Shown here: one piece after another, positions 10,056 through 62,484 of the stretch
Layout of the letters: every line of letters begins with the position of its first letter
How positions within the stretch are numbered: the first letter of the stretch is position 1
Assembly (NCBI GenBank): GCA_008632985.1
Contig: QPGO01000024.1
Span: forward strand, 124,001 to 188,000
Source: Psammoneis japonica
Lineage: Eukaryota
Reading direction: 5' to 3'
DNA: 64,000 bases
Position numbers and translations under genes: made by a program
The notes under the pieces: model-generated
The model's database searches: none
What the model was told of the DNA's origin: nothing
Seen by the model: only the letters and a program-made list of their open reading frames with translations

Positions 10056-13000
10056 AGACATCGGCTTCTGTTGATGTCCTGTAGTGTATGGAAAATAGAG
10101 TGAGGCGGGCATTTTTGACGTTCTCGCTTGTCATGCCGAAAGATTCCAAGTTAGCTTTTGAGTAATAAACCAAGAATTATCTACTGCTACTAACTCTTGA
10201 TTTCATGAGTCAAAGGATGAAAGGACTTGCATGTGAATCTGGTCGGCCTGCCGCTGGAGAAAAAGCAAGAGGAGACCGGCATTGACCACGACAACACGGA
10301 AGCAAGAAGAAAAAAAGCGTAGCAATCTCATTTGCCTGCAGTGCCTGGCGTGCAAGAGAAAACAAGAGAGAGCTCTGACGGTGTGGGCGTGACACTGTGC
10401 TTATCTGTTGGCGCGGCACACTTGAGGTGCACTCGCAAAGTGCACACATTGACTTTTCCCAATTGGCATCATGCGGCATGTCCAACACAGCCACCAGTGA
10501 AAACCTGTGCATCACATCCTTTCTGTTCTTTTCTTCACTCCTAACTGCCCCACAAGAAATGTCCACTCCAAGGAACCCATGCCATGTGAAGCAAATCTTT
10601 CATTGTTGATGCTTCGTCCTTTCTCATGGGTTGGCATCAGTGGCTCTCTGGGGGGGGATGCTGTGTTGCTGGAGTTTGCAGGATCAGAAGGTTCCTCAGC
10701 TTGAAGTTGGCATCCCCTGCCCTGTCCACACTCTTGAAAAATAATGGTTCTGTCAATGCCATTGTGAGCTCGTGAACAAACTCCTTGCTCATTCAACCCT
10801 TTTGCATGCAGGAACACCCTTGCCAAGCCAATGAAACTTTTGTGTCTGGCTTGACTGTGTTTGAGCTACATGCATCAAACACCCTGGCAACAGCATCACA
10901 CAGGCAGTCTGCATCAATTTGTCCAGTGCATGTGGTCAAACAAATTGTCAACAAGGGCTCTGCCCTGATCTTCTCGTGTGCTCTTTCCCACACCCTTGAT
11001 GAAAAATGGAGCATGCTGTGTTTTTGGAAACCCCTCTTTGACCAACAACAAAAACAACAAGGTTGCTCTTGAGTGCAACACATGATTGAGACCAATGAGA
11101 ATCATTTGGTCCTGAGAGTCATGCACAGAAATTGTGCAGGCCAGTGCAAAAAATGTCAAGTTGTCCTCCGCACATCTGTCCATCACACTTCTTGGGTGTC
11201 AGTTTTTCTTGGGAGTTCAACTGGAGTGCAATCTGATCAAACACATTGTTCTTTGCCATGCAAAGTGAAGCACCTTTGATCAGATGGCAATCAACTGACA
11301 TTTCCCTCAAAGTCATTGGCTCCAACCACCCTCTCAAACAACACTGTGTGTGCATTTCAGCATGACTTTGTGTCTTTTCCTTGTGCAAGAAAAGCAGCTT
11401 TGACTGTTGAGTGAAAGGCTCCTGTTGAAGCAATCTGCAAGCCATCATGAGGGCAACCCTCTTTCAAAATGTTGGCTGTGCTTGACTCCTTTTGGAATTT
11501 TTGAACAATGCCAAGGGCTCTCAAGATGCTGCACCCACAATCTTCAATGAGATCAACCCCAACTCATTGTGGTCAACAGCAAAGCCTGTCCTTGTGCAAG
11601 CTTTAACAACAGAAACAGCCCCATCATTGGCAACTTTCCAGTTGCCAGAGTTGTCACCATTCAAAGCACCTGGGACATTCTTCAAGTCTTGGAGGGGGGG
11701 GGGGGGGGGGGGGGCAAAAGAATGATGTGAGGAAGCACAGCTGTCAAAGTCAACTCTGTCTCACCAAATGGCAAGCAAGATTTGGAGGTTTCTGCAAATT
11801 TCTCCAGCTTGGTTTTGTCAACTCGAATGTGTTTTGCCTCACAGTGTTGGCTTGGAATTGGGCTCCAGTTGAGCCTGGGAAGTTTTGTCTTTGGAGGCCA
11901 TTCCTGTTCAGGGACATCACGGCTGCCATCCTTGCAACAGAGATGCCAGGTGCCCAGCACTTGGCTGGCTGGCTTTCCCATTGCCTGCTGAGTTGACCCT
12001 TTTGAACATTTGTCACCCACACAGCAGTGGGGCTGGAAATGCCAGTTGTTGCCACTGCCGTGCAACTGTGCTGAAAAAAGGATTGGCCAGGCAGGTGCCA
12101 GACAGAGATGCTTTGAGTCTGGAGCCGCCACAATCTGCTGCCAGTGAAAAAGCTGACCATGCAACACTGGCTTTGCTTCTTTTGGCAACCATTGGAGGAC
12201 ATGCCAAATGGATGAATGGAGATGCCATGGTCTGAAGCAGTCATGATCTGCTGCTGGGCATGCAGGCTGGCTGGCAACTGCCAACACTTGTCACAGGAGC
12301 AGCTGCTTCTAAAAAACTGATGAAGCCAACTAGCTGGCATCAACTGGCTGGATGACAATCAGTGAAGAAGCTCTCAAGCTGGCAGTGGAAAGAACTTGCA
12401 GTGTCTTTGTGCATGCCTTTGAGCAAGTGCAAGTCTTTGTGCTTTGTGGCAATGGCTCAATGACAAAAACCACATGTGGTCTAGCATTTTTGACATTTGA
12501 TGGGTGGATTTTGCCAACTGTCATGTGCAGGCATTGCGCACAATTGTGGCACTCTTGCTGCTTTCCACCTCAGCTCAAGCACACCTCCTTTGCAATGTCT
12601 CTGCTTCCAGCTTTCATCAAAGGCACTCTCTCTCTCTTTGGGCAACAAATCAACAGAGAAATTGCTGAGCTTGATGTTGTCTACTCACAAAGAGCTCTCT
12701 GGATGGCGCCATCAGGCAAATGCACTGAGACAAGCAACTTTGAGAAACTGGTGGGTGGTTGCTGACAACAGCACATGCAAGAAGGAGGATGGCTGGAAAC
12801 ATTTTTGTGAAAACTTTGTCAGTTGAGCCAACACCTTTGCTGCACTCACAAAACCTGATCCTGACAATCTCCTGCAACAAAGCAACTGCAACAAAAACTC
12901 AACAATTCAGTGGCAGCACATCTGATCAAGCCTGTGTCAGTTGACTTGCTCTGGGAGCTTGGGTCATGTTGATGCTTTTGCTTGTGTCAGAGGAGGGGGA

Positions 13001-13099
13001 GAGGCCTTTGATCATGGAACAAGCCACCTTGTCCTTGTTGTGGGCTGGGGCACTGCCCAGCAAATTGGGCTGCAAGAAGACTTCCACAACAACAGCACA

Positions 13100-14950
13100 T
13101 TTTTGCAGGAGAAAACAATGGCACAGCTGTTTTTATTTTGTTGGAACATTGGGGTCAGGGGCAGTTTTTGCAGGACAGACAGACAATGTTGCAGTGCAAC
13201 ATGCTCTGACAATTGTGGGCAATGTGGTGAAGTTGCATTTGCAACTTGCATTGAGTTTCAGGTCTTGTGCTCCCTTTTTGGCTTCTGCACCCAGTTGACA
13301 TGGCAGCAAGCTCAGCAGTTGACAGCATTGGTGGAAATGTGTTTGCAAGCCACACAGGGCGTTTGGGGTCAGTGAGGCTGAATGTGTGCCAGTTGGTGAG
13401 CCATGAAACTCCAACACAGAAGCCAAAAAGCAGTGGAATGACACTCAAAGGAGCGGTGGTGTTCAAAGGAGCATCTAGTGTTGGTGCATTGTGGCAAACT
13501 GGCTTGCTGGATGAGGGCAAAGAAATGATCTCTGGAGGGCCTTGCTGTCAACAAAGCTGTCGAGGGCCCTCTTTCTGCCAAAAGAGGGTGCAGCAAGGTT
13601 TTGTTGGGGTTGGCAAGACTCAGCATGTGACTGTCGGTGCAAGCCACAATGCTCCAAAATTGGTTAAAAAAAATGGGCAAAGACACAGCTGAGTGCAGAA
13701 GCACAAAAGATTCAATGGAGTGGGTGCATGATGCCATTCTTGCCAAGTTGGGATGACAGGCAGATGGTTGCACAGAGACCACAAACAAGATCAGCAAGCA
13801 TGTTGGCAGAATGTTTGGGCCAGAGATGCTGATGCTGGCATCTGTGAAGCAGGAGAGCATGCCAAAAGAGCCAGAGAGTGTCTGTTGGTGGACACTGCAC
13901 TGGAGAAGGAAAAGGCAATCTGTGGCAGTCCCAAGAAGCAATGTGGTCACCATGAAACACTCTGCAAGATGCAGAAGGCAAAGGCATTTGACACAATTGT
14001 GGGATGATGCACAAAGGCAGTTCATCACAAGAAGATTGAAGGAGTGACAGAGCTTGTGAGAGTCACAAACACAAAGGAGTGGGACATGGCAGCACTTTTG
14101 GAGGTTCTCATCAGTCTCAGTCTTGTTCTCAATGCAAATGAGAAGACATGCCAGCATGTCCAGGTGGTCAAGGCTTGGAAGCAGTTGGTGCTCATTTGTC
14201 AAGATGAAGGAGAGGCACTTTAAGATCACATTGCAGTCAGCTCATGAGCATTGTCACAGTGACAGAAATGTCCCATGGCAGGATCATCTCAGAAGACAAA
14301 ATCGCCAAGAAAGAAGATGGGTTCAGCAAGGATGCTGATGACACCTGAAACAAAGAAAGAAACAAGTTGTTGGTGGTGTGCCAATGGAAGGTGCAAAGAA
14401 GGAACACTGCTGGCATGTCTTGAAAGACCTGCATCAGCAGTTTGCACTGGGGGTCGACAATTGCCCCAATTTGGCGGAGGAGGCATTGCAGGTGCTGCAC
14501 ACATGTGGGACCAACAAGAAACCTGAGGGTGCAAGTTTTGCACAGAACAAGAAGAAGCAGATCAAGTGCTGGAAATGTGATGATTGTCCTGACAATGTCA
14601 TTCATTGGCAGAGTCAGATGATGTGGGTCATGGCAATCAGTGGAGCAGTCAAAGTGGTGTTGGGTGGCATGGTTTTCAAGTGTCATCCTCCTGTGCATGC
14701 TTGATGTGCACAAGGCCAATCAATTGACAGCTTGTGTGAAGGAGTGTGTTGGAACATTGGGGTCAGAGGTGGTTTTCCCAGGACAAACAGACAATGTTGC
14801 AGTGCAAGATGTGTTGACAATTGCAGGCAACACAGCAAAGTTGCAATCATGACTCAGGTTGCAGGTTGTGTGCTCACTTTTTGGCTTTTGGAATGTGTTC
14901 AAAACAAGCCACATGGCGAGTTTTGGTCAGCAAGCTGCAAAACTCCAACA
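13100..14950 (+). mobile_element. Repeat family A, copy 1 (degenerate gag-like remnant, zinc knuckle partly deleted)
   Basis: Colinear with parts of 18975-19537/24845-26240 and 59660-61650, e.g. shared GTGGTCAAGGCTTGGAAGCAGTTGGTGCTCATTTG. Confidence 0.7.
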
Positions 14951-15749
14951 GAGTTTTGCAGGCAGCTGCAGAGGTTGCTGTGGGTTGTCTTGGATCCACC
15001 AGGGGCTCCAGGTGCAGGTTTGTCATGTCAAGAGAGCTTGAAGCAGTGGACAGTGCTGGTGGAATCTTGGGAACACAAATGCAACCGGAGGGCTGAATGA
15101 TGTGTGTTGCACAGCAGGGGCAAAGCAGAGATGGGAGGTGCCAACAAGAACAACCACCTTGGTGCAACAAGCCACAAGAGCTTCTTCAATCTTGTGGTCC
15201 ATCATCCATCAGGATGAACAAGATGCTTGGTCAAAAGATGCAGGACTGGTGACTTTGAGGGGTGCTTTTCTGAAGAGCGATGCAGCAACCGGTGGTGCAT
15301 CTGCAGGGTCAAGGGTTTCCAGAAGGATGAGTTCTTGAAAAATGTGTTCCCAAAGCAGATCAACAATGCTGTCTTTGGCCTTCCCATGCTTGGGATCATC
15401 AAAGAACTGATCCAAGTCAATGATGCCACCACCGCAAAGGCTGTTGCCAGTCTGCAGGGCCTGTGCATTGACAAAAAAAGCACTTCCAGGATCAAAAATG
15501 GTGGCAGGCATGTTCAGCTCACAAAACAAGCACAAATCACAGTGGAAATTGCTGCAGTGCAGAAGGGTGACAACCCAATGAGTGCACAACATGTCAGAGT
15601 GCCAACGGCAGCATGAGGAACAAGCCAAAGAGCTCCCTGCAAACCAGCAACAGCAGTGGACAACACACATGTGCTGGCAAGAAAGAGTGACAAGAAGTTC
15701 TCAGAGAGATCATCTTGTCCATCTGAAGGCATGCATTTGACCATCATCT

Positions 15750-18700
15750 ACACACAGTCTGACCTTGCACAGGGTCAGCTGACAGTTGCAGAACAGATGT
15801 CCTTGTGCAGGGGTTGCTGGCTGTTGTGTCTTGGCTTCTGACAACAGGACTTTGACAGCAGCCAAAAGTTGCTGTGTGAATTGACAGGCTCTGTGTTGCT
15901 GCTGCAACTCTCCAGATCAGAGCACTGCTCTGAAGCTTGCTTTGGAGCACGCTGGACTCCAGGTGCCACCAGCATGGAAAAACTTCCAACCTGGACAGAG
16001 GCTCTGGTGTTGACGAGACTGCTGGTGTTTGTTCCATGATCCAGCTTTCCTCTGCAATGATGACATGTTTTGCACACACACAAAATGTGAGAGAGAAAGA
16101 GAGGAAGTTCAAAAACTGACATTTGCAGCACTGAAAATGATGAGGTTGAACTCTGTCCAAGCTCCTGCTGCACACAAAAAGTCCTGAGTGAGAAAATTGC
16201 ATGGAATTTGCACTGGGGGACCCAAAAAAGTCCAGAACAACATGATTTTTAGCTTTTTTTTTGGACATCCCTGGCACTGCTTTTATGTTGGATTCTGCAA
16301 AGTTCTAGAAAATCCTGTCACTCTGGACATTTTGTGCTCCCTGGCACAAACTCTGTGCACCATTTTTGCTCTAGACTTTCTGTGCATGGCAGTGCAGGTC
16401 AGGCTGATGCTCTTGTTAAGATCCACTTGGTTGACCAGGTTTTGAGCATCCTCTTCTGTGCAGTGTAGACCAGAGATTCTTCCACACATTGACAAAATGA
16501 ACAAGAGTGTCAGAGGCAAAATGTGAGAGTGGAGCTTTCACAAATCTTATGATCCATGGAGGCATGCTGGCCACGCACATGCAGACACATTGGCTGATCA
16601 TCTTTTGGGAGTTTGGCTTGCCTCTCAGCTCTCAAAGATCCAAGGTTGGGACAGCAGCTGTGGTTGGCTGCCAAATGACTTGAGGTCAGTTGGAACAATT
16701 GACTGCCACAGCTGATGATCCTTTGATTGCTGACAATGGCAAGTTTCAAATGAGAAACTCTCAAATTAAAACACTGAACACACTGTCAACTGGGAGCTTT
16801 TGGTCCTGAGTTGTGTCATTGCCTTCATGCCAAGCCCCAACCTGCAATGATGTCACTCCAGCATCAGAAGGGAGCAACAGCCCAATCATGCTGCAAATCT
16901 TCTTCCAATGGCACCTGTCTGTCAAATGTTTTTTTGAACATGGTGCATCCACAGAATCATGCCCTGCTTGTGAAGCAGAGATCCTGAAAACTCAAAGAGG
17001 GGGGGGGGGGTGGAGTTGTCAAATGAAGATCACAGGTTTTGCAAAACAGCCAGTGTCTTCTTTAGGAAGGATCGCTGCACCCCTTGCCAGGAAAAGTTGC
17101 CTGCCAGCACATGTCACATGTGGTCATTCATTCTGGGCAAGAGCCATCATTGCATGGAAATTGTTGCCAAGCACTTCAGTCATTGGCCAGCAGCTTTTTC
17201 ACATTCACAACTGCTCAGGATGACGTGTGCCAGGGTTTGACAACCAAATTCATGGCAGTCATTGTGGAAACAACTAAGCAACATCCTTTGAAGGCAGAGT
17301 TTCAAATGCCATGGTCAACAATGACATTGCCAAAACATGCCACGCACATCTTTCTGACTCTTCCAAACAAGATGCTGCCACAACCAGCACTCATTTGAAA
17401 AAGATTGTGTTGCATGGTTGAAAAAAATGGATTGTGCAAGGCAGCATTTTTTGTCATCCAGGACTGCACAGATGATGGATGTGCCAAGCAATGCAGGCAT
17501 GATTTGGCATTGCGTGTGTTGTCTGTGTTTGTGCACAAATGCAAAAAATTGTGTTCAACCCAGCAGTTGGTGCACCTGGACATGGGGCAAGGGAGAAGTG
17601 GGTGGCACTGGAGCACACACAAAGTCTGTGGCATCAGAGGGGGGAAATGTGGCCCATTGATTTGGTGACAGGAGCAAACAAAAAAGCCAAGAAAAGTGGT
17701 GCAAATGTGCCAGATGTTGCAGATTAAGACAATTGTGTTGTCAAGTCACACAACAGTGCTTGAAAGTTCTTGAAAGGGGGGAAAGTGCAAAAGGGACAAA
17801 TTTGTGGCAATTGTTGGAGATGTTGATGTCCGCTGGAGTTTTGCCATGGCAACAAAACTGCCTGGAATGTCTTTGCAGATGACTGCAGTGGTCTTGGTCA
17901 CAGTGGCCACAAATTTCTTGAATGTGAGCTTGCACCATGCTTTCCAGCATTGACAATGGTGGCAGGAAGAGGGTCGGCAATGGTGCCAGTGCTCACAGTG
18001 GAAATGACAGCCATGCAGAAAAGGACATCATGAGCAGCTTTCACAGTTGAGAGGTGAGTCAGAAGCAATTCTGAAAACTGTGATGACTTGACCAACAAAG
18101 AAATTCTGTGTGCACTGCACCAGTCTTCAACACAAAAGTCATGCAGAAGGTGCACACCATGTGAACCTCAAAGAACAAGTGGCGCCGGCTGTCAGGGGTG
18201 AGAAAAGCAAATTTTGCAGTCACACTGCAATGGTGTGGGTCACAGTGTGAACTCAATTTTCAAAAGCCAGCAACAGCATGGTTGCATGGGCTGCATCTGT
18301 TCTGTTTTGCATCTTCTCCTTTTTGAGGTTTTGCAGCTTGAATTGTCAACATTGGGCACCCCCATGCTTGTTGAGTCATGCAAAGTGAGGTGAGCAACCA
18401 AGCTGCTGAGCTCTGCCTCAGAATGTTTGAATGCAGGCATGGGATGAGTTTGCAATGACAGTGACTCCAGGTGCACACATTTGATGGAAGTTTTGTGGGT
18501 CAGCAGAGGAGAGCAAGACAACCACACAATTGCTCACCCACTGAATCTCATTGTTCACACACAGGGCCTGCACTGCAATCATCATGAGTTGTGTCTTCAA
18601 TGCCATTGGTGGCAAGCATCCTGTCTCTCTTGACCAAATTTGAGCACATCAGCCAATTGTCCCCAATTGACCAACCCACACTGGCACACCTTGTTTGCTG

Positions 18701-18944
18701 AGCTCACATGCCTGCTGTGGTTGCTTGTTGCAAGCAACATCCAGGAGCAGTGGTTGCCACCACCATGCAGAAACAAGAAAAAATGCTTCCCAAGATGTGC
18801 TCTGAGCAGCATGGTGACAAGCAGCTACAAGAAATTGACCTGCTTGGGTGTGTGACACAATGAGCTGAGAGACGAAGGGCAGACAAACTTGGGCCAGTCA
18901 TTTTGCTTGCTGAGATTGACCTCTTGCTTGGCAGGGCAACTCAA
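15750..18944. repeat. Repeat family B, copy 1 (about 3.2 kb, unclassified)
   Basis: Colinear with 52376-55968 from CACAGTCTGACCTTGCACAGG to GGCAGGGCAACTCAA. Lacks about 360 bp present at 53145-53505. Confidence 0.9.
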
Positions 18945-19537
18945 TGCAGTTGCTCCTTTTTTCTGGCATGTTTGTGGATTTTTAAGAGCAAAATGGGCAA
19001 GGCAAAAATGGCGTGCAGCATTGGAACACAGGGGTCAGAGGTGGTTTTTGCAGGACAGACATGCAAAGTTGCAGTGGAAAGACACACCAATGATTTTGGA
19101 CAACATGGTGGCTAAGTTTGCATTCACAACTTGGATTGAGTTGCTGGTCCTGTGCTCACTTTTTAAGTTCTGCACTGGGTTGACATGGCATTGGTGGTTG
19201 ACAGTGCAAGCAATGTGTTTGCAAGCCATGGGCTGAGCTGGGAGTCAGTGAGACCAAATGTGTGCTGGCCGGAGATCCACAAAACTCCAACACAGAAGCC
19301 AAAAAGGCACGGCATGACACTCAAAGGAGTGTCATCATCAGAAGGCTGGGAAGATGAGAGGAATCCAAGAAAAAGGCTGGGAAGTTGACAAGAATCCAAA
19401 GTTGTGCTTCATGTTGGCGGGTCACACCAGCAAACAAACTGGCTGGATGAGGGCAAAGAAATGATCGCTGGAGTGCCTTGCTGTCAACAAAGCTGTCAAG
19501 GGTCTGCTGAAAGAGGGTGTGGCAAGGTTGTGTCAGG

Positions 19538-19969
19538 TGCCCCATGCATGCAACAGGCGACGAAAATGCAGATGTGTTTCAATTGTGTCATTGTGGAAAA
19601 TTATGAGCTAATTTCATGTAGAGAAATGGGGTCGTAGGAACAGGGAATCGCATCAAATTCGCTGTTCGTTTGCATTGTGGATCGCACCAATCGATCGTGC
19701 ATTCGCATTGTGGATCGTGCGAATCACACCAACACGCGCTGCGCACGAGTGATGTCATCGTGTGGAATCACACTGCTGTTGTGGGCCAGACAACAGGTTA
19801 GTGTGCTTCACACGGATGCTCTCTTAGCATCCTTCTGGATTTGCCTGAGACACAGAGCCACATCCTCCTGTGGTCTTGCTTCCCAGGTGCGTGCTGACAA
19901 CACTGCGTTGTCACGCACAAGAGGCCATGCACAGTCTTGCCGTGTTGTCCAGTGCTGAGGCATGCTGCA
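19538..19969 (-). repeat. Gypsy 3' LTR (432 bp)
   Basis: Direct repeat of 24408-24840; adjacent polypurine tract. Confidence 0.92.
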
Positions 19970-20185
19970 CACTCCCCCATGATCAGGGCTGTTGAGTGAC
20001 AGAATGTCTCACTGGTGACAGGGCACAATCTGCCATAGATTGCATGCATCTGTCAGTGCTCCATTCTGGATGCGCAACGTGCCATTGTCACACACACGGA
20101 CAACTCTGGCAGGTCCTGCATGGCAGTCAGAAATGCACTTAGAAGATTGTTCTTGTTTTGTGAGCGCCAATTGCCCAACGGTGTG

Positions 20186-24312: not shown

Positions 24313-24407
24313 GGTGATTTTCGAGTTTGTTGGTCCTGCCAACATGTTGCAGCATTCGTTTTTGTAGATTTTGTAACCTCGCACACCATGCGGGAGCAAT
24401 GTCACTG

Positions 24408-43660: not shown

Positions 43661-43690
43661 GGTGTTGGCTGTTCACATGCCAGTCGCATT

Positions 43691-46140: not shown

Positions 46141-46142
46141 AA

Positions 46143-48172: not shown

Positions 48173-48827
48173 GTTGTCCTTGTTGTTGTTGCTGCTGCGA
48201 GTATGAGTTGTGTGGTTGATCGTGGTGGAACTGGAGCATGATAGCATCGAGCGTGTTTTTTTTTCCAGATACGTTTTTTTTTCAGATACGTTTTCGCTCT
48301 GTCATTCAAACCTTTTTCATTCCTACTCGAAAGAACGCGACCCAAAAACACGACAAACACCCTTCACATTTGCACGGTCGTTCAAACCTTGTGCATTCAC
48401 GTGACAGTAGACCATCGTGGCGGACCATCGTGACGGGCATCATTGTGGCCACGGCCTTATTCTGAATGACCCTTGATGCATGATGCGTGCATCTATCTAG
48501 CTAGGAAAATAGGGGGGGGTACAGACGGAAGAAGAGGGGGGGAGAGGGGGAGCGAAGCGACCCCGTTGTTGCTGCTTTAACAAGAGAGAAGGAAGGAAGA
48601 GAGCAAACGGAAGCAGCAAGGAAAGAAGTGAGACGACCGTGCGATGTGTTGTTGCGTTTTTGCGGAGTTGAAGATAGAGCGCATGAGCCTGACGCGCATA
48701 AAAGATTTCTATGGTAGATTTTATATATGCGCTGTCGCCCCCCATTTCCCATCTTCTATCTTGGTCCCAATTTGAGATGGAACGTTGGCTAGAATCACAG
48801 TGCAAATAATGAATCTACATTTACAGG

Positions 48828-51800: not shown

Positions 51801-52000
51801 CGGTGATGTTGTAAACCGAGGCGCATTTTTTCCCGACAACTTTGCGACTCCAGAAAAAGCTCGCTCCTTTGCTTTTTTCGTGGCTGCCTTTCGAGTCTGA
51901 GACTGAATGCCCATGGTGCTGGGAAGCTTGCGGGAGCAACACTTCTCCATTCTGCTGCAATTCCTTCTCTCAGAACTCTCCTGTGCAGGTGGGTCGGCAC
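48828..52000 (-). pseudogene. Large (about 1000 aa) DDE-transposase-like ORF broken by three in-frame stops; family uncertain
   Basis: ORFs 50829-52091, 50169-50816 and 48828-50147 share one frame. Cys clusters, then VASDHTF..ETGEI..HSDTWP..CRLGLWH..SKLEKFH, reminiscent of DUF6729-associated/Dada/MULE-like transposases (from memory, not searched). Confidence 0.5.
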
Positions 52001-52375
52001 TGATGATGAGTGAGATGAAAAAAGACCAGAGGAGTTTGAATTTTGTGTGTGGTGTCTTTGTCCGAGCGCCAGTGCTCAGACTGTGGCGCATCCGTCTGAG
52101 ATGGACGAACCGAGGTGGCAGTGTCTGTGTTGCATTGATCGTTGACTGGTGATGATGTGCATTCTTTCAGAAAGCCTTGAGTGTTGCAACATGTGTTCTT
52201 GAAATGAAGCGTTCTGATTGGTCCAATCTTCCATCGGCAGGGGGCCTGTCACGAGCTGCGGTGTGTCATTGTAACGTACGTGCGCATGTCCGTCCGTCCA
52301 TTTTCAAAAAGAAATGCTGCACACAAGTTGGTCGCGCACGTTTGGGTTCGTTCGATGCAGCCGTGCAACTAGCCA

Positions 52376-55300
52376 CACACACAGTCTAACCTTGCACAGG
52401 GTCATCTGACAGTTGCAGAACAGATGTCCTTGTGCAGGGGTTGCTGGCTGTTGTGTCTTGGCTTCTGACAACAGGACTTTGACAGCAGCCAAGTTGCTGT
52501 GTGAGTTGACAGGCTCTGTGCTGCTGCAACTCTCCAGATCAGAACACTGCTCTGAACCTTGCTTTGGAGCATGCTGGACTTCAGGTGCCTTCAGCATGGA
52601 AAAACCTCCAACCTGGACAGAGGCTCTGGTGTTGACAAGACTGCTGGTGTTTGTTCCATGATCCAGCTTTCCTCTGCAATGATGACATGTTTTGCACACA
52701 CACAAACTGTGGGAGAGAAAGAGTGGAAGTTCAAAAACTGACATTTGCAGCACTGCAAATGATGAGGTTGAACTCTGCCCAAGCTCCTGCTGCACACAAA
52801 AAGTCCTGAGTGAGAAAACTGCATGGAGTTTGCACTGGGGGACCCAAAAAAGTCCAGAACAACGGGATTTTTAGCTTTTTTTTGGACATCCCTGGCACTG
52901 CTTTTATGTTGGATTCTGCACAGTTCTAGAAAATCCTGTCACTCTGGACATTTTGTGCTCCCTGGCACAAACTCTGTGCACCATTTTTGCTCCAAACTTT
53001 CTGTGCATGGCAGTGCAGGTCAGGCTGATGCTCTTGTTGAGATCCACTTGGTTGACCAGGTTTTGAGCATCCTCTTCTGTGCAGTGTGGACCAGACACTC
53101 TTCCACACATTGACAAAATGAACAAGAGTGTCAGAGGCAAAATGTGCCACTGAGCATCTGTCAGACCAGACAGCTTCTTGATGAGATGCACAAAAGACAC
53201 TCATGACATGCAGCTAAAATGGAGCATGTTTTTCTGATCTTTGATGGCACAGAAACACTGCTTGGCTCTGTCAAAAAATGGCCATTGTCTCTCTTCACTC
53301 CTTGCAGCAACTCAGCTGATGCTGGGCCTTGGTCAGAATTGGTTGTCATGAGCCCCTGCGGGTCATGCACTGAAAAACACATTGAAGAAAACAGCTGACA
53401 GATGTCTGACTTGGTGAATCTTGAATTTGAGACATCCTCTCCAAAGAGCAAGTGACCAAAGGTGGTTGTGCTCAATGTTGTTGATGAACATGATGCCTGC
53501 ATGGTGAGAGTGGTGCTTTCACAAATCTTGTGATCCATGGAGGCATGCTGGCCACACACATGCAGACACATTGGCTGATCATCTTTTGGGAGTTTGGCTT
53601 GCCTCTCAGCTCTCAAAGATCCAAGGTTGGCACAGCAGCTGTGGTTGGCTGCCAAATGACTTGAGGTCAGTTGGAACAATTGACTGCCACAGTGGCTGAT
53701 GATCCTTTGATTGCTGACAATGGCAAGTTTCAAATGAGAAACTCTCAAATTAAAACACTGAACACACTGTCAATTGGGAGCTTTTGGTCCTGAGTTGTGT
53801 CATTGCCTTCATGCCAAGCCCCAATCTGCAATGATGTCACTCCAGTGTCAGAAGGGAGCAACAGCCCAATCACACTGCAAATCTTCTTCCAAGGGCACCT
53901 GTCTGTCAAATGTTTTTTTGGACATGGTGCATCCACAGAATCATGCCCTGCTTGTGAAGCAGAGATCCTGAAAACTCAAAGAGGGGGGGTGTGGAGTTGT
54001 CAAATGAAGATCACAGGTTTTGCAAACCAGCCAGTGTCTTCTTTGGGAAGGATCGCTGCACCCCTTGCCAGGAAAAGTTGCCTGCCAGCACATGTCACAT
54101 GTGGTTATTCTGGACAAGAGTTGTTGAATGGAAATTGTCACCAAGCACTTCAGCAGTCATTGACCAGCAGCTTTTTCACATCTGCAACTGCTCAGGATGA
54201 CTTGTGTCAGAGTTTGACAACCAAATTCAGGGCAATCATTGTGGAAACAACCAAGCAACATCCTCCTTTGAACAAGGCAGAGTTTTAGATGCCATGGTTG
54301 ACAATGACATCACCAAAACATGGCACACACATCTTTCTTCCAAACAAGATGCTGCCACAACCAGCACTCATTTGAAAAAGATTGTTGCATGGTTGAAAAA
54401 ACATGGATTGTGCAAGGCAGCATTTCTTGTCATCCAGGACTGCACAGATGACGGATGTGCCAAGCAATGCAGGCATGATTTGGCACTGCATGTGTTGTCT
54501 GTGTTTGTGTGCAAATGCAAAAAATTGTGTTCAACCCAGCAGTCTGTGCACCTGGACACAGGGCAAGGGAGAAGTGGGTGGCATTGGAGCACACACAAAG
54601 TCTGTGGCATCAGAGGGAGAAATGTGGCCCATTGATTTGGTGGCAGGAGCAAACAAAAAAGCCAAGAAAATTGGCGCAAATGTGCCAGTTGTTGTGGATC
54701 AAGACAATGTGTTGTCAAGTCACACAAGAGTGCTTGAAAGTTCTTGAAGAAGGAATGTGCAAAAGGGGCACATTTGTGGCAATTGTTGGAGATGTTGATG
54801 TCCACTGGAGTTTTGCTTGTCATGGCAACAAAACTGCCTGGGGATGCCTTTGCAGATGACTGCACAAATTTCTTGAATGTGAGCTTGCGCCATGCTTTCC
54901 AGCATTGACAATGGTGGCAGGAAGAGGGTTCTTGGCAATGGTGCCAGCACTCACAGTGAAAATGACAGCTGTGCAGAAAAGGACATCATGAGCAGCTTTC
55001 ACAGTTGAGAGGTGAGCTGGAGGCAATTCTGAAAACTGTGATGACTTGACCATCAAAAGAAATTCTGTGTGCACTGCATCAGTCTTCAACACAAAAGTCA
55101 TGCAGAAAGTGCACACCATGTGAACCTCAAAGAACAAGTGGCGCCGGCTGTCAGGGGTGAGAAAAGCAAGTTTTGTGGTCACACTGCAATGGTGTGGGTC
55201 ATGGCGTGAATTCAATTTTCAAAACATTTCAAGCCAGCAACATCATGGTTGCATTGGCTGCATCTGTTCTGTTGCATCTTGTCTTTTCTGAGATTTTGCA

Positions 55301-55968
55301 GCTTGAATTTTTGTGCCAGTCTTGCATGACATCAACATTGGACACCCCCCCATGCTTGTTGAGTTGTGCAAAGTGAGGTGAGCAACCAAGCTGCTGAGCT
55401 CTGCCTCAGAATGTTTGAGTGCAGGCATGGGATGAGTTTGCAATGACAATGACTCCAGGTGCACATTTGACGGGAGTTTTGTGGGTTGGCAGAGGAGAGC
55501 AAGACAATCACACAATTGCTCACCCACTGAATCTGGCTGTTCACACACAGGGCCTGCACTGCAGCCACATCAGCATGAGTTGTGTCTTCAATGCCATTGA
55601 ACGCAAGCATCCTGTCTCTCTTGACAGAATTTGAGCACATCAGCCAATTGTCCTCAATTGACCAACCCGCACTGGCACACCTTGTTTGCTGAGCTCACAT
55701 GCCTGCTGTGGTTGCTTGTTGCAGGCAACATTCAGGAGCAGTGGTTGCCACCACCATGCAGCAACAAGAAAAAATGCTTCCCAAGATGTGCTCTGAGCAG
55801 CATGGTGACAAGCAGCTGCAAGAAATTGACCTGCTTGGGTGTGTGACACAATGAGCTGAGAGACAAAGGGTGACCACTCCTTTTTAAAGAGCCCACCACC
55901 AGGCAGACAAACTTGGGCCAGTCATTTCACTTGCTGAGATTGACCTCTTGTTTGGCAGGGCAACTCAA
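52376..55968. repeat. Repeat family B, copy 2 (about 3.6 kb)
   Basis: Colinear direct repeat of 15750-18944. Confidence 0.9.
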
Positions 55969-56528
55969 CACCATGAAAAAATTGTTGTCAGCTTTTGTTG
56001 AAATGATGCAAGAGGCAAAATTTTGTTTTCAATGCCCCCCCATGACAGGAGCACAAAAGACATGATCATGAAAAATGCAAAGATCAACAATTGAGGCTTG
56101 CACAAACGACACCCCATGAGATGGTAGTTGCACTTGATTGTGCTCTGGAAGAACGCGACAAGATGGATCATAAATGTGTGATTGCAGGAGCGAGAGTTAA
56201 ACTTCTCGTGACGAGGCTGGAAATGGAGCTTGGCGGATTGGGGCTGTCAGAGCTGCGGACATGCCTGTGCACTTGTGCAGCGATCCCAGTGCCGCTTCCA
56301 TGTGTTTTTCTGTGTTTTGCCACCAGAGTTTGTGACAATGTGCAATCGTGCGCCTGTTCCCACCGACAAAGACAGCGCCACCCCTCCACTTCTCGCACTC
56401 GAATTCATCTGACACCAAGGCAACAGAGCTTCAATCACCTCCATCAGGTCAAAAGACTCTGAAAGCGTGGAGCCATTGCCTCGTTTGTGAGCATCCCCCA
56501 TCCCCCCCCCCCCAGCATTCGAGTTCAT

Positions 56529-58855
56529 CTAACTGCGAGGCAACAGAGCTTCAATCGCCTTCATCAGGTCAAAAGACTCAGACATCGTGGGGCGTGAAGC
56601 ATGATTGCATGTGAGCATGCTTTTGCAGAGACTGATCATCTCCTTTCCTCCATCTAGTTTCGGCCAATGTTCTGTGAAGACTGCCTTGTTAAAGGCCTGT
56701 CCCAGCTGCTCTTCGAAATTGATCTCTGACGAGAAAGCCTTGTGTGGCATTGGAGCTTCACCAGCCATCATTTCACAGAAGATTGCCCCAACACTGCAGG
56801 CATCTATCTTGTTGCTTGCAGTGCAACTGTTCGCACTCCAGGGGCCATGCACATGGGTGTGCCAGCTTCCTGTGTGATGCCCTGATCGTCATCCTCACTG
56901 ACGGCAGATCTCAAGAGACCGAAGTCTGTGACTGGCACCTTGCCGGTTTCCTCGTCGACAAGAATGTTCACCAGTTTGAGATCGCGATGCATCATCGAAT
57001 GCTGCTCGAATGCTTTGCCTGCCGACATGACCTGTAGCACAACATTAAAAACCCAACGAAATTTTGAAACAGAGGGCTTGATGGACGCCATCTTCTCACA
57101 TTCATCTTTCAGCGTGTGGTTCTCTAATCTCGGCATAAAAGTGGCAAAGCACACCTTGCTTTTCTCTGGTGCTTTGCATGTGTGGCCGAGAAGTGGGACC
57201 ACATTCTTGTGATCGATGAGTCCATGACAAAGCAAAGGGCGCACACCATGCTTGGGGATGTCAGCCACGTCCAAAATCTGAATCTTCATGACCAAAGAGG
57301 CGTGGCTGTTTGCAATTCCATAGATCCCGCCTTGAGCACCAGAGTCCATGTGATCGGTTGTTGAGAATTGGCCCTTCTCAAGTTCCCAGAGAAGCCCAGC
57401 TCCTGCCTTTTCCTGAGTGGCAAGGGGGCTGCTCTTCTTCTGCTGCTTGAAACTTTCCACTTGATCTCTTACGTTGCCCATGCAGTCATCCTCATAATCA
57501 GATTTCTCAAGTGCAGCTCAAATGACAGGATTGTGCATGCAAAGTTCCAACGTAAAATGCGGTCCTGGTCCAAGGGCAGTTTGTGGATCCAGCTCGGATG
57601 CTTCCACGTCAGTCTCGTTGCACGAAAGCTCGGCCACTTCCGAGTCGCGTGCTCCAGCAGCAATCGAATCGTCCGCCGCGATGAGAAACATTGGGTGTTT
57701 GTCCTTGATGCTCTGCAAGCAAGCGTCCATGAAGCCGTGGCCTGGAAAGTGGCGCTCGCACTTCTCCACCATGGGGCAGAGTTGCTCGTGTGGTTGTGTG
57801 AACAGATTGCGCAAATCCGACACTTCAACAGGAATGTCCGGGTCAAAGCTCGATGCACCGGCTGCGGTCCTCGTGTCAGCGCCAGGCGAGCTGACCGTCA
57901 ATGATGCAGCATTTCCGTCGGATGTGCCACTTGGTCCAACGGCAATCCACAGCAACTTGAGTTCTTTGATGGACCTTGATGGACCTGCAACGATGTGTGG
58001 GAAAATGTTGTTCTTGATTGTGTTCTCAAGCAATGTCATTTTTGCGGTTTTCAACAAGTCCATGCCAGTGTCAATTCTTTCCACGAATTGCAACAGGTGA
58101 TCATCGCCCAGCAACAGCTCCACGATCATCTGTTTTGCTTGTTTTTTGAAGACATGCGGACAAAGATTGCCTTCTCTGAGTTCCAAGGTGAGCTCAGTTG
58201 CTCGTTCGAGCTGTGCCTGTGACATGAGGCCCCAGATCGCATCGTCACGAAGCAGCGCCACGCATTTGTCTTTCCCCAGAGAATGCTGGGCTGCTGCCTC
58301 CATCAGACACCTCACAAATTCTCGAACACTCTCATCCGACCCAGAAAGCTGGGGTTGGATTCAAATCAACTTGGAAACTTCGACGAGCATGAGCATCAAA
58401 TCATCCACATCGCTTCCTGATTTTCCCTTCTTCTTGTTGCTGTCCGGCAGCATCCACGCAAGAAGGCCTTGCACCTCCTTCTCTTCTGCTGATGGCAACC
58501 TCTGCTTTTCAATGGAAAGGTTCAGCTTCATTTTTTCGGCCTCGAGCAAGGACCAAATCGTGGGTGAGTCCTCCTTGCTGATGAGACATTTTTCTCGTCC
58601 AACGTTGAGGGCGGCTCGGATGAGACTCACATTCAGCAAGTTGTCTCTCATGGCATTGAAGCAGCCCGTGAGCTGCAACGACGTCTTTCCAAAGGCAGCG
58701 ACATCCCCAGTGCTTCCTCGGCCGGTCATTTCATCATCACTGAACGAAGCGGCATTGGCAAGAGTCAGCCGCGCCTTTGGGTCTTCGTCTGAGCCACCAG
58801 CTGCAGCCTGTCACTGACGATTGCGAATCTTTGGTGTCTTTGCGTTGTGTTCCAT
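56529..58855 (-). pseudogene. Ser/Thr protein kinase pseudogene with long N-terminal extension
   Basis: SGAQGGIY, VMK, HRDLKLVNILV, TDFGL, GTPMCMAP, KIDACSVGAIFCEM, SRPT; several frameshifts. Confidence 0.85.
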
Positions 58856-59015
58856 TGTCACAGAAAAGATGTCTGACTGCAAAAGGATGTTGTGATGAAA
58901 GGTGTAGCGAATGGAAGCAATTGGTCGCAGAGACATGATGAAATCAAAATTCAAAATGGCCGCTGGTGTTGTCGTTGACCATCTTGTTGTGGTTTGTTGT
59001 GGCTGGAGCGAAGAG

Positions 59016-59600
59016 CGGGATTTTCTAAAAAATGGGATTTTAAAAATTTTAAAAGAAAATTGAGTCTCAAAATTTTGAAAATCGTGTTTTCTCAGCAAAT
59101 GCGGCAAGAACGTGATGGATCAGCCGCACGTCGGGATTTTCTAAAAAAATGGGATTTTCAAAATTTTAAAAGAAAATTGAGTCTCAAAATTTTGAAAATC
59201 GTGTTTTCTCAGCAAATGCCGCAAGAACGTGATGGATTGGCCGTCCGTCAGGATTTTCTAAAAAAATGGGATTTTCAAAATTTTAAAAGAAAATTGAGTC
59301 TCAAAATTTTGAAAATCGTGTTTTTTCTCAGCAAATGCCGCAAGAACGTGATGGATTGGCCGTCCGTCGGGATTTTCAAAAAAATGGGATTTTCAAAATT
59401 TTAAAAGAAAATTGAGTCTCAAAATTTTGAAAATCGTGTTTTCTCAGCAAATGCCGCAAGAACGTGATGGATTGGCCGTCCGTCGGGATTTTCAAAAAAA
59501 TGGGATTTTCAAAATTTTAAAAGAAAATTGAGTCTCAAAATTTTGAAAATTGTGTTTTCTCAGCAAATGCCTCAAGAACGTGATGGATCGGCCGTCCATC
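59016..59600. repeat. AT-rich tandem repeat of about 117 bp, 5 copies
   Basis: GGATTTTC(T/A)AAAAAATGGGATTTTCAAAATTTTAAAAGAAAATTGAGTCTCAAAATTTTGAAAATCGTG..GATGGATTGGCCGTCCGT repeated. Confidence 0.95.
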
Positions 59601-59659
59601 TTCCGTTTGTGGTTTCAAAGGAACGTTTGCATCGCGCAGGCCTGGACACTTCTGAGATG

Positions 59660-61951
59660 TTTTAAGAGCAAAACAGGCAAGGTGAAAATGACTTGCAGCA
59701 TTGGAGCACAGGGATCAGAGGTGGTTTTTGCAGGACAGACATGCAAAGTTGCAGTGGAAAGACACACTGATGATTTTGGACAACATGGTGGCCAAGTTTG
59801 CACCCACAACTTGGGCTGAGTGTTGCGGGTCTTGTGTTCACTTTTAACTTCTGCACTGGGTTGACATGGCATTGGTGGTTGACAGTGTCAGCAATGTGTT
59901 TGCAAGCCATTGGGCTGAGCTGGGAGTCAGCGAGACCAAGTGCTGTTTGCTGGCCAGCGACCCACCAAACTCCAACACAGAAGCCAAAAAGGCACGGCAT
60001 GACACTCAAAGGAGTGTCATCATCAGAAGGCTGGGAAGTTGAGAGGAATCTAAAGAAAAAGACTGAGAAGTTGACAAGAATCCAAAGTTGTGCTTCATGT
60101 TGGTGGGTCACACCAGCAAACAAACTGGCTGGATGAGGGCAAAGAAATGATCTCTGGAGGGCCTTGCCACCAACAAAGCTGTCAAGGGTCTGCTGAAAGA
60201 GGGTGTGGCAAGGTTGTGTCAGGGTCAGCAAGACAGGGTGTTCACCTGTCAGCAAGCCATGAAAGTCCAACACAAGCCCCAGAAAAGATGGGCAAGGACA
60301 CAGCCAAGTGTTGAAGCATGAAAGATTGAAGGAGTGGGTGTGTGACACCATTGCCAAGTTGGGATGACAGGCAGATGGTTGCACAGAAACCACAGGAAGA
60401 TGGACAAGCATGTGTCAGAAGAATGCTCAGCTGGAGATGTGGGCAGTGGTGTCTCTGGGGCAAGAGAGCACCACCCCAAAAGAGCTGGAGCATCTGTGGG
60501 GAGTCACCCTGTGGGAGAAGGACTGGGGCAAGGAATGTGGTCACCATGCAAAACAGGGTGCAATCTGCAAGACACATGAGGCAAAGGCGTTTGACATCAT
60601 TTGAGGGGCAATGTGCAAAGGTCATTCACCACAAAGTTGAAGGAGCAACAGAGTTTGCAAGAAGAGTTGCTCCTGGAAAGGAGTGGGACATGGCAGCACT
60701 GCTGGATGTTCTTAAGTCAATCTTGTTCCACACAAATGAGAAGACAAACCCACACATTGAGGTGGTCAAGGCTTGGAAGCAGTTGGTGCTCATTTGTTGA
60801 GATGAAGGAGAGGTGCTTCAAGATCAATGTGACTGGCCCATGAGTGTGGTTGAAGTGGTGAAAACATCTTGTGGCAGGATTGCCATCATGGAAAAAATCA
60901 CCAAGAAAGAAGGTGGGTTCAGCAAAGATGCCAATCACAGCCAGAACAAAAAAAGGGACAAGTTGTTGGCAGTGACACCAATGGAAGGTGCCAAGGAACA
61001 TTGGCACATCCTGAAAGACCCACATTGGCAGTTCACACTGGGGGGCGACATTTGCCCCAATTCAGCTGAGGAGGAACTGCAGATGTTGGACACCTGTGGG
61101 GCCAATGAGAAACCTGATGGCGCAAGTTTTGCACAGAGCAAGAAGAAGCATGTCAGATGCTGGAAATGCAATGAGGTTGGGGGGCATGTGAGAAAAGACT
61201 GTCCTGATGACAGCCATCATCCATCAGTGAAGTCAAGTGGTTTGGGCCACTGGAGTCAATGATGGAACAGTTGACATGGTGTTGGGTGACATGGATTCCA
61301 AGTGATGCTCTCCCATGCTTGATGCACACAAGGCCAATGTCATCAGTTGACTGCTTGTGCAAAGGAGTGTGTTGGATCATTGGGGCCAGAGGCAGTTTTT
61401 GCACAGGACAGATGACAGACAAAGTTGCAGTGGAAAGACACACTGATGATTGTGGTCAATGTGGCAAGCTTGCACTCATGACTTGGATTGAGTTGCAGGT
61501 CTTGTGCTCACATTTTAGCTTCTGCACCTGGTTGACATGGCATTGCTGGCAGTGGTTGACAGCGCTGGCTGCAGTGTTTTTGTGAGCTGCACAGTGAGTC
61601 AGGAGACAGCAGTGTGATCAAATGCATGCCAGTTGGTGAGCTGTGAAACTCCAACATGTAGACAGATCTCCTGCAAAGTGTCTTGGAGAGCTGGCACTTT
61701 TTGAAAAGTTGCTCAAACGCAATGACCCGTGCGTGCCTGTCGCTGGGCACGAACAAGTGCTTTCTTGTGGCTGCCTTTGTGAAAACCACCGACAGAACCA
61801 ACTCTGAAAATTGAGACAACTTGACAAAGAAAAGAAATTCTGTGCACATGACACCAGCCTTTCTGGCACAACAGCCACTTGCAGTGCACACAGGTGCAGC
61901 CCTTGAGGAAGCCGGTGTGTGAAAGCAAGTTTTTGTGGTGTCGCGCTGGCT
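59660..61951 (+). mobile_element. Repeat family A, copy 3 (uninterrupted; carries the empty Gypsy site)
   Basis: GGTTGTGT-CAGG-GTCAGC at about 60212-60229 has a single CAGG. CWKCNEVGGHVRKDC at about 61158-61202. Confidence 0.85.
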
Positions 61952-62484
61952 CCTCCTGTGCAACATCCGCAGTGGCACCAACTCATTTCCCCCCAAACAT
62001 TTGAAAACAGCAACATTGTGGTTGCTCATGTGTGCAAGGAAGCGATTTGGTGTGGAGATTTGCGCAAGTGAGTGCTGGCTGCCTCGCCAAATGCACGTGC
62101 AGCAGCACAGCTGGAGAGTCAGCTGTGTTGTGCTCCTCTCGAGAAGGATCACATTCAAGAAAATCACATCAAAGGACTGGGACTCAGTTCTGCTGGTCAG
62201 ACAATTTGCACAATGCCAACACTCTCTTGTCATGCCGAAAGACACCGTGCTGGCATTTGAGTCAGCAGTCTCAACTCTCTCCAGGTGCTGCAAGCGAGCT
62301 CGCGTGAAGCGTGAAGAACGACGGGCACGCTCAGCGCTCAGCGCTCAGCTCTACTCTGGGGGCCCTAGAGCTAGCCACCAGAGATAAGCACCAAATCAAA
62401 ATTCTACTGCCACTTTCCACTTTGGACTTCCGATTTCCGATTCACGACGGACGACGGAAAAATTGAACTTTCGCGCGCAGCGCG

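Follow-up and report, generated by a model that had tools for sequence, protein, structure and literature searches.

What can erase one dinucleotide from kilobases of transposon-rich DNA and leave the genes in between with a normal share of it? The question is posed by a 64,000-nucleotide stretch of the genome of the diatom Psammoneis japonica (positions 124,001–188,000 of contig QPGO01000024.1, GenBank assembly GCA_008632985.1; the whole stretch is called the window here, and coordinates are counted from its first nucleotide), in which three blocks rich in mobile DNA have almost no TpA and an excess of TpG and CpA. An initial annotation, made from the sequence, had proposed a repeat-restricted A-to-G hypermutation at TpA, the reverse of fungal repeat-induced point mutation (RIP), produced by an active mutator aimed at repeats or heterochromatin. 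The overall reading reached here, to which we assign a probability of roughly 60%, is that mobile DNA is hypermutated in place, in targeted domains, from TpA to TpG or CpA, by a process of the kind reported from the alga Bigelowiella natans. That the process is real, acts in situ and is specific for TpA is a narrower claim, which we hold with high confidence.

Dinucleotide composition was calculated as observed/expected (obs/exp) ratios in 2-kb windows and in 250-bp bins, and the totals of the blocks were compared with counts expected from the density in flanking genes. The blocks (10192–29990, 39800–46017 and 48860–62351, edges set by the last or first TA) have TpA obs/exp values of 0.01–0.17, against 0.49–0.77 in 2-kb windows of the host genes between and beside them (Tyr content 1.6–2.6% in four host proteins), and TG and CA values of 1.4–2.2, against approximately 1.1–1.2 in the intervening genes. 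Over all blocks, 174 TA were counted where 1574 were expected, 911 CG where 2282 were expected, and 8513 TG+CA where 5566 were expected: the combined deficit of TA and CG (2771, comprising 1400 TA and 1371 CG) is close to the TG+CA excess of 2947. The remaining dinucleotide classes shift little, and the GC content of the blocks is the same or raised. The depletion is far beyond chance, and the initial annotation's description of it, with TpA nearly gone and TG/CA dominant beside genes of normal composition, is borne out. Borders are abrupt, falling within approximately 50–160 bp where the spacing of TA permits (flanking TAs at 10191/10320, 29960/30009, 39727/39887, 48858/48985 and 61659/62352), and block 2 has zero TA between 45228 and 46018. 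CG depletion is patchy (obs/exp 0.05–0.9) and decoupled from that of TA.

Comparison of the window with itself (self-BLAST) resolved the blocks into nested mosaics of several elements; the 'three repeat blocks' of the initial annotation stand as three bounded blocks, none of them a single repeat. Their features, and a satellite used as a control, are as follows (LTR, long terminal repeat; ORF, open reading frame; RT, reverse transcriptase).

10192–29990: block 1, old unclassified repeats, a nested Gypsy element and a helicase-like remnant (TA obs/exp 0.02–0.17)
10192–10474: edge zone, 283 bp between the 3′ end of the NOG1 gene and an old CG-poor repeat
15750–19536: repeat X copy 1, left part, collinear with 52377–55968 plus 59660–60223 at 88–96% identity (self-BLAST)
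19537–24842, minus strand: Ty3/Gypsy LTR retrotransposon nested in repeat X, LTRs at 19537–19971 and 24407–24842
Gypsy ORFs, minus strand: gag 23296–24540; protease region 22298–23266; RT 21505–22298; RNaseH/integrase 20189–21535
24843–26532: repeat X copy 1, right part, resuming past the Gypsy insertion and matching 60220–61952 at 90.3% identity
25414–25878, plus strand: zf-CCHC (zinc knuckle) Pfam match in the right part of X copy 1
28167–28823, minus strand: helicase-like ORF remnant with the motif HVVLSRV and 0 Tyr in 219 aa
32028–32577: control satellite outside the blocks, a 60-bp unit in 8.9 tandem copies, internally palindromic, TA-rich and CG-poor
39800–46017, minus strand: block 2, Ty1/Copia remnant with RVT_2 at 41599–42288
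48860–62351: block 3, made up of the features that follow
48860–52300, minus strand: multi-copy element with a single 1112-codon frame (48831–52166) interrupted by two TGA and one TAG
52301–55968: repeat X copy 2, left part (TA 10 vs 146 expected; CG 18 vs 212)
55969–59660, minus strand: 3.7-kb insert unique to X copy 2 (TA 25 vs 147 expected; CG 160 vs 213)
56532–57517, minus strand: degraded protein kinase in the 3.7-kb insert (Pfam Pkinase; motifs CMAP and DACS)
57521–58360, minus strand: ORF of unassigned family in the 3.7-kb insert
59016–59597: tandem repeat of a 117-bp unit in five copies, in the 3.7-kb insert of block 3, its TAs lying solely in CTAA and TTAA, contexts found below to be resistant
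59661–62351: repeat X copy 2, right part, ending at the right border of block 3
59701–59977 and 61372–61656: old LTR-like pair within X copy 2, 72% identical

The Gypsy element has the Ty3/Gypsy layout (an LTR pair around gag, protease, RT, RNaseH and integrase, in that order), with 436-bp LTRs that are 90.6% identical and Pfam matches to RVT_1, RT_RNaseH(_2) and Integrase_H2C2; the rve core is unmatched in the window's ORF and was found in homologues. Among the 1125 residues of its four pol ORFs there is a single Tyr, as against one in about 950 by the reading of the initial annotation. Nine of the altered motifs which it had quoted were looked up, and all are present at or close to where it had read them, on the minus strand: HLDD (22030–22041), LPDSG (23063–23077), CSRKL (21538–21552) and NHTTT (21508–21522) in the Gypsy element, HVDDP (42055–42069) and KALCG (42202–42216) in the Copia remnant, HVVLSRV (28314–28334) in the helicase-like remnant, and CMAP (56840–56851) and DACS (56793–56804) in the kinase.

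Alignment of the Gypsy RNaseH/integrase ORF with 60 homologues (45–55% identity) polarises these changes. Tyr accounts for 0.22% of the ORF and 3.5% of the homologues, and His plus Cys is doubled; of 12 columns in which the homologues conserve Tyr, five are His in the ORF, five Cys, one Phe and one still Tyr. Changes that also recur are Ile>Thr (to ACA, 6), Ile>Met (2), Leu>Pro (to CCA, 4), Leu>Ser (to TCA, 3) and, in codons with a T just before them, Thr>Ala (3), while four Arg>Cys/His changes represent CpG decay. Of the 15 conserved-Tyr columns of the 1112-codon element, six now read His, four Cys and two Tyr, with a stop, a Leu and an Arg in one each. Relatives carry Tyr where the elements have His or Cys, and TA is therefore the ancestral state and TG/CA the derived one, the direction that had been proposed. 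The initial annotation had named native His or Cys at the motifs of active relatives as grounds for giving up its proposal; by these alignments, neither residue is native there.

The same footprint was found in other records. A word-indexed set of 120 Gypsy-ORF homologues contains one metagenomic protein, P0174, with as little as 0.45% Tyr. A metagenome scan with P0174 returned 44 loci, from which P0174's own contig is absent and 0/44 of which are TA-depleted (obs/exp 0.60–1.02); several encode unmutated relatives 90–92% identical to P0174, and the loci were used as unmutated outgroups, L014 being set aside with a frame broken by 11 stops. Compared with the unmutated L001 (91% identical), P0174 shows 39 residue differences, 25 of which correspond to a single TA>TG/CA change of the L001 codon, with 9/11 Tyr lost and 2 CpG changes. 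A>G has struck 13/48 observable targets at TpA, compared with 3/264 at other NpA (p = 2e-9), an enrichment on which the initial annotation had made its case depend. Moreover, in an exhaustive search, ten of the best 150 representatives related to the Gypsy ORF combine less than 1% Tyr with raised His+Cys (P0276, P0299, P0366, P0360, P0384, P0312, P0396, P0341, P0382 and P0358); such Tyr-poor Gypsy pol relatives come from Logan, JGI, ENA and NCBI, and some may be this same genome.

These comparisons bear on the idea that no targeted process is involved, and that the blocks reflect native composition, selection against TA, GC-biased gene conversion or error-prone repair by DNA polymerase eta at WA sites. 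Repeats do undergo ectopic conversion, and TA is mildly under-represented in genes too (0.5–0.77). However, relatives carry Tyr and 44/44 related loci have TA obs/exp of 0.60–1.02; catalytic motifs have been destroyed, which argues that the changes were not selected for function; gene conversion or polymerase eta would also deplete AA/TT and AT, both of which are near normal (obs/exp in the blocks 1.03–1.48, no lower than in genes, and 0.7–1.05, respectively); and the TA site retained most is TTAA, rather than the GC-poor class in general. Non-targeted causes are accordingly very improbable. Polymerase eta, which the initial annotation had listed among its candidates, was rejected specifically: its A>G changes fall at ApA as well as TpA, and ApA is not depleted in the blocks.

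The loss of TpA is also distinct from the decay of CpG. TA and CG fell by 80% and 9% in the 1112-codon element, where the two part most clearly (TA 27 vs 137 expected; CG 181 vs 199), by 96% and 43% in the Copia block (9 vs 248; 204 vs 359), where the balance is exact (394 TA+CG lost, 394 TG+CA gained), and by approximately 92% each in old repeat X (copy 1, left part). TA is heavily depleted in the other parts of block 1 as well (28 vs 361 expected in 10475–19536, 47 vs 211 in the Gypsy element, 20 vs 205 in 24843–29990). Depending on the element, TA loss is 1–17 times CpG loss per site: the TpA process is separate from CpG>TpG/CpA decay and mostly faster, and CpG decay is overlaid on the older parts. 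Deamination of 5-methylcytosine (5mC) resembles the TpA process in acting on a palindromic dinucleotide, strand-symmetrically and site by site, in giving TG and CA, and in operating in the same blocks, but it cannot remove TA, and the two losses are uncoupled here. The earlier statement that 5mC does not explain the missing TA thus holds, with the addition that CG is itself depleted, and unevenly.

Neither strand is preferred. TG and CA are approximately equal in each of eight sub-blocks, and no strand-coordinated tracts were found when these were searched (runs-test z −1.0 to +1.6); it is clear that the process strikes both strands equally, site by site. Clustered action of an APOBEC/AID-type deaminase on single-stranded DNA was rejected, the base change being the wrong one and coordinated runs being absent. 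Flanking bases, in contrast to strand, matter a great deal (Y, pyrimidine; R, purine). The 172 surviving block TAs comprise 101 YTAR, 36 RTAR, 27 YTAY and 8 RTAY, and those of host genes 170, 242, 254 and 301, respectively (chi-square 149, p = 4e-32), corresponding to retention of 37%, 9%, 7% and 1.6%, with TTAA the most retained site of all. The trend is alike in most of the eight sub-blocks, the Copia block having few survivors, and YTGY has been gained more than RTGR, which is the same direction. In an additive per-strand model, A is lost at a rate of 2.05 before Y and 0.50 before R, predicting 2.55 for mixed sites (2.39 and 2.72 observed). This fits conversion of the A of 5′-TAY approximately four times faster than that of 5′-TAR or, equally, of the T of RTA over that of YTA.

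Timing is recorded in pairs of copies. The Gypsy LTRs differ in 40 columns, 32 of them linked to TA or CG and 8 of other kinds. Paired sites divide into TA/TA (2), TA/TG (2), TA/CA (2), CG/CG (11), CG/TG (4), CG/CA (12) and TG/CA (6), with CG opposed to TG or CA at 16; independent mutation of two LTRs with approximately 16 ancestral TA and 27 CG, numbers assumed from length and composition, predicts about 6 discordant doubles, and 6 were observed. Six repeat pairs yielded 49 TG/CA doubles in total. Other genomic copies were represented by contigs of a public sequencing run, X1, placed on 38001–58000: among 29 listed differences between the 1112-codon element and its copies elsewhere, 11 were TG<->CA doubles, 4 were TA in the window and CA or TG elsewhere, 2 were CA in the window and TA elsewhere, 8 were CpG-type and 4 were other changes. 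Because both LTRs and genomic copies differ as TG versus CA at one and the same site, conversion must have acted on integrated DNA, each copy separately.

That conclusion bears directly on A-to-I editing of RNA at UA by ADAR- or ADAT-like enzymes, fixed by reverse transcription before integration. Editing at this stage has been proposed for some hypermutated animal retroelements, and two of the affected elements here are LTR retrotransposons; its predicted product is A>G on the sense strand only, whereas TG and CA are balanced in all blocks and coding-strand T>C (Tyr>His 5, Ile>Thr 6, Leu>Pro/Ser 7) rivals A>G (Tyr>Cys 5, Ile>Met 2). LTRs, identical at integration, are discordant at 6 TG/CA and 4 TA sites; DNA that is not retroelement is equally affected, in the kinase segment as in the 1112-codon element and in repeat X, which is non-coding; and the 3′ preference is for Y, as against the G typical of ADARs. 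ADARs do favour a 5′ U and target repeat double-stranded RNA, as the text of the B. natans preprint points out (bioRxiv 10.64898/2026.01.13.699255), but on balance RNA-level editing is highly unlikely. More generally, APOBEC3 (G>A, on cDNA) and ADAR (A>G, via RNA) resemble the present process in disabling retroelements through densely placed transitions that favour certain neighbouring bases; they differ in acting before integration on single-stranded cDNA or RNA, in strand-biased clusters, where here the change is post-integration and strand-symmetric and includes non-retroelement DNA.

Could the pattern have been written by the assembly itself, with TG or CA called for TA at modified bases during base-calling or polishing of long reads? 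Heavily modified repeats do cause systematic long-read errors, and the platform used for this assembly is not on record. X1 (one sample from one study, library not on record, approximately 60× 31-mer depth) nonetheless reproduces the depleted sequence: its contigs show 1 difference over 38683–40184, a stretch that spans the left border of block 2, 3 over 43640–45193, 0 over 55835–56513 and 6 over 56495–58000, that is, 0–6 differences per 0.5–1.5 kb. The pattern is therefore present in read-derived sequence; a further run, X3, and most of a third, X2, have almost no coverage of the blocks. TG in one family copy and CA in another at the same site is not expected from an error model, and four further public sources contain relatives that lack Tyr. 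According to the text of the preprint, moreover, an independent laboratory obtained the same signature from Illumina data in another alga, B. natans (bioRxiv 10.64898/2026.01.13.699255). We regard an artefact as the least probable of the explanations considered.

What singles out the blocks? Repetition is not sufficient, since the 60-bp satellite between blocks 1 and 2 keeps its TA even in the most susceptible contexts (ATAT and ATAC). Parts of the blocks are, conversely, single-copy at the level of 31-mers in X1, where the 3.7-kb insert has a depth of approximately 57–65, as in single-copy genes, and the main target in B. natans is single-copy as well. The 'repeat-restricted' element of the initial annotation is thus not supported, and its active mutator survives as one that is specific for TpA and confined to transposon-rich blocks. 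Sharp borders together with the spared satellite suggest recruitment through chromatin state or recognition of foreign DNA, rather than through repetition. The edge zone at the left of block 1 has 2 TA where 11 were expected and yet 12 CG where 16 were expected; it could be a place where the TA process has spread into unique flanking DNA, or a young fragment. An 80-bp relative of the satellite lies at 39623–39702, immediately left of the block 2 border.

The effect on coding sequence is peculiar. By enumeration of codons, TA>TG/CA yields 0 sense-to-stop changes and removes TAA and TAG. TGA makes up 1953/2218 of the stop triplets in the blocks, and ORFs of at least 110 codons occur at 29.4 per 10 kb there versus 18.4.

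A mechanism consistent with these observations would run as follows. Once integrated, the transposon DNA has undergone TpA to TpG/CpA change (T:A>C:G) in place, copy by copy; the agent would be a candidate enzyme recruited to silenced or foreign chromatin that would convert the base on DNA at TpA. Genes are disabled by missense, through loss of Tyr, replacement of ATA-encoded Ile by Thr or Met and of CTA- or TTA-encoded Leu by Pro or Ser, with no new stops, and the whole would serve to defend the genome by putting mobile DNA irreversibly out of action.

The same signature has been described in B. natans (bioRxiv 10.64898/2026.01.13.699255), so that the initial annotation's remark that no equivalent was known no longer applies. 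As given in the text of that preprint, 231/302 nuclear mutations in 15 mutation-accumulation lines fell in one integrated nucleocytoplasmic large DNA virus (NCLDV) and one virophage; 230/231 were A>G or T>C, all the GC-biased ones at TpA; and the rate there was approximately 6e-7, against 3.5e-10 elsewhere (about 1000-fold), in some lines only. The NCLDV insert exists in one copy, the lines in which the mutations appeared were mitotic, and 324 TpA-depleted coding sequences are enriched for RT and DDE domains (bioRxiv 10.64898/2026.01.13.699255). The two cases share near-exclusive T:A>C:G change at TpA, with TG or CA as the product depending on the strand, in mobile or foreign DNA with host genes spared. 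They differ in lineage, B. natans being a chlorarachniophyte (rhizarian) and P. japonica a stramenopile; in degree, the viral inserts of B. natans retaining much TA (rho 0.45) where the LTR retrotransposons and unclassified repeats here are near saturation (0.01–0.17); and in kind of evidence, mutations having been measured de novo there, where here the footprint alone is available. By term search, the main text of the preprint makes no mention of diatoms and contains neither a preference for flanking bases nor an analysis of strand runs or a test on LTR pairs; these three are added here. That the two represent the same kind of system is, in our judgement, probable. Literature searches returned no report of TpA depletion for diatoms and, for any organism, only that preprint; what is new here is the footprint in a second lineage, a diatom, the kind itself being known from one 2026 preprint, together with four quantitative features: a TAY rule, equal action on both strands, conversion after integration and an inability to make stop codons.

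RIP offers the nearest likeness in fungi, in that mobile DNA is irreversibly filled in place with transitions at one dinucleotide, leaving skewed islands beside normal genes. In ascomycetes it changes C to T, mainly at CpA, creates TpA and many stops, and requires duplication and a premeiotic stage. Here TpA is destroyed rather than created, as the label 'reverse RIP' had implied; GC is raised, stops are impossible, and duplication has not been shown to be needed, the satellite being spared. To our knowledge, no eukaryotic genome defence that mutates A:T pairs was known before 2026, RIP, APOBEC and 5mC decay all acting on C.

Which base is altered is a separate matter. TpA being palindromic, A>G on one strand is indistinguishable from T>C on the other, and the 'A-to-G' of the initial annotation is sound as T:A>C:G at TpA, its strand naming being a convention. 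The chemistry that we favour, though tentatively, is enzymatic deamination of adenine to hypoxanthine, which would then be read as G. The preprint's text proposes an ADAT2 homologue as the candidate enzyme in B. natans and cites reports that ADAT2 of amphioxus and trypanosomes acts on DNA (bioRxiv 10.64898/2026.01.13.699255). Otherwise the natural substrates of TadA/ADAT enzymes are structured RNA or single strands, unlike the present footprint, which looks duplex and site by site. The natural substrate of TadA and ADAT2–ADAT3 has U 5′ of the edited A, and the bacterial TadA site is UAC; the resemblance of UAC to the TAY preference is a lead only.

The alternative is that TpA in silenced DNA carries a symmetric modified base (5-hydroxymethyluracil, 5hmU, or 5-formyluracil made by a TET/JBP-type dioxygenase, or a hypermodified T) whose mispairing or misrepair gives T>C, in which case TpA depletion would be the by-product of an epigenetic mark and no dedicated mutator need exist. 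A symmetric mark on duplex DNA would behave as seen, striking a palindrome equally on both strands, site by site and without coordinated tracts; the same domains also show CpG decay, for T the context amounts just as well to RTA over YTA, and dinoflagellate 5hmU has a reported TpA/TpC preference. Weighing on the other side, 5hmU forms good pairs with A and has little mutagenic effect, we know of no modified base at TpA in diatoms, and no evidence of 5hmU in diatoms was met here. There is a precedent within the stramenopile–alveolate–rhizarian (SAR) lineages, since a dinoflagellate TET/JBP homologue produces 5hmU, which is concentrated on repeats and helps to silence transposons (PMC11572971). 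It is alike in that modification of T:A pairs marks and silences transposons; it differs in being a mark and not a reported mutator, and no TpA>CpA footprint is described in that article, where 'TpA' occurs 0 times (PMC11572971). The bursts seen in some B. natans lines, up to 45 mutations per line according to the preprint's text, resemble an episodic enzyme rather than steady decay. The sequence does not decide between T-centred and A-centred chemistry; a modified base seems to us unlikely, less so than RNA editing or non-targeted causes by a wide measure, and adenine deamination remains the chemistry to which we lean.

Several points weigh against the reading of in-place, targeted TpA hypermutation of the B. 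natans kind. A mechanism shared with B. natans, a rhizarian, is argued from the signature alone, and the palindromic site means that the sequence itself gives adenine deamination no preference. X1 is possibly the assembly's own source, and therefore excludes an artefact of assembly or consensus more than it replicates the finding. In P0174, the TAY/RTA preference is only a trend (17/49 favoured sites changed vs 8/48 disfavoured, p = 0.06). Expected TA was taken from flanking genes, from which transposons could differ natively, although the values of 0.60–1.02 in unmutated Gypsy relatives imply that the true loss is, if anything, larger. For the LTRs, a TA loss wholly after integration depends on the assumed 16 or so ancestral TA. 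Lastly, the copies of repeat X share most of their TG/CA states (535 concordant vs 18 discordant between 24843–26532 and 60220–61952), so that much of the loss in X is older than its duplication, and the copies do not fix the timing of that shared loss relative to insertion.

Further observations concern the individual elements. Copy 2 of repeat X is uninterrupted by the Gypsy element (52377–55968 plus 59660–61952), and this empty site already carries a short direct repeat, which makes the Gypsy target-site duplication ambiguous. The helicase-like ORF had no Pfam match at E<=0.01; its putative label comes from the motif HVVLSRV. Pfam likewise gave no family above threshold for the 1112-codon element, seven of its homologues or five further window ORFs, a sub-threshold DUF6729 in one homologue of the 1112-codon element being the sole trace, and the Protein Atlas held no usable match for that element. 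It has eight metagenomic relatives, and its word depth in X1 is several-fold that of adjoining single-copy genes, corresponding to approximately 4–10 copies. Contigs of X1 link 52237/52245 back to 48516/48513 through 20–31 other letters, which suggests head-to-tail or otherwise rearranged copies elsewhere in the genome; if the element begins at approximately 48516, its first 340 bp or so (16 TAs, including ATAT and GTAC) escaped hypermutation. The kinase remnant fell only into generic kinase clusters of the Protein Atlas.

Within the Copia block, for which self-BLAST of the window found no LTRs, the stretch 40669–41335 has a summed 31-mer depth of approximately 56,000 in X1, compared with approximately 60 for single-copy genes: part of the block is an extremely abundant repeat of the genome. 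On the plus strand at 43472–43912, in a frame antisense to the Copia remnant, lies a match to PUA_2, a PUA-like domain (E 2.5e-8), which may be a captured or overlapping gene fragment within the hypermutated block.

The genes of the window are long ORFs with few introns, and Pfam matches outside the blocks are to ordinary host genes; a tRNA scan of the window found none. The best named relatives of the NOG1 gene (8001–10055) are from the diatoms Attheya, Chaetoceros, Nitzschia and Dactyliosolen (72–76% identity), with further relatives at up to 83%, and we take the window to be diatom nuclear DNA. Adjoining block 3 on the right, beyond a CpG-dense stretch (62295–62750), is an ORF on the plus strand (62789–63451) that encodes a RusA domain (Holliday-junction resolvase; Pfam E 3.8e-11), of a family usually met in bacteria and phages.

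Several consequences follow for work on such genomes. With 32/40 LTR differences driven by TA or CG, dating by LTR divergence would be badly inflated, and the long stop-free pseudo-ORFs and Tyr-free 'proteins' of such regions pollute public gene catalogues. The enzyme may be sought as one that works on integrated duplex DNA within sharply bordered domains, follows a per-strand TAY/RTA motif, treats both strands alike and is not tied to CpG decay; a natural enzyme converting T:A to C:G in duplex chromatin would matter both to the biology of genome defence and to base-editing technology. A saturated footprint in a diatom, a member of a group of major marine primary producers, suggests that the process is widespread and old. 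As a bolder conjecture, which we consider possible but somewhat doubtful, diatoms and perhaps much of SAR may possess a chromatin-guided 'adenine base editor' of duplex DNA, shared with B. natans, that recognises 5′-TAY and targets new mobile or viral DNA, repeated or not; the retroelement proteins without Tyr in marine metagenomes may be its footprint in many protists. If this is true, such a system would wipe TpA from new insertions in a short evolutionary time, without creating stop codons.

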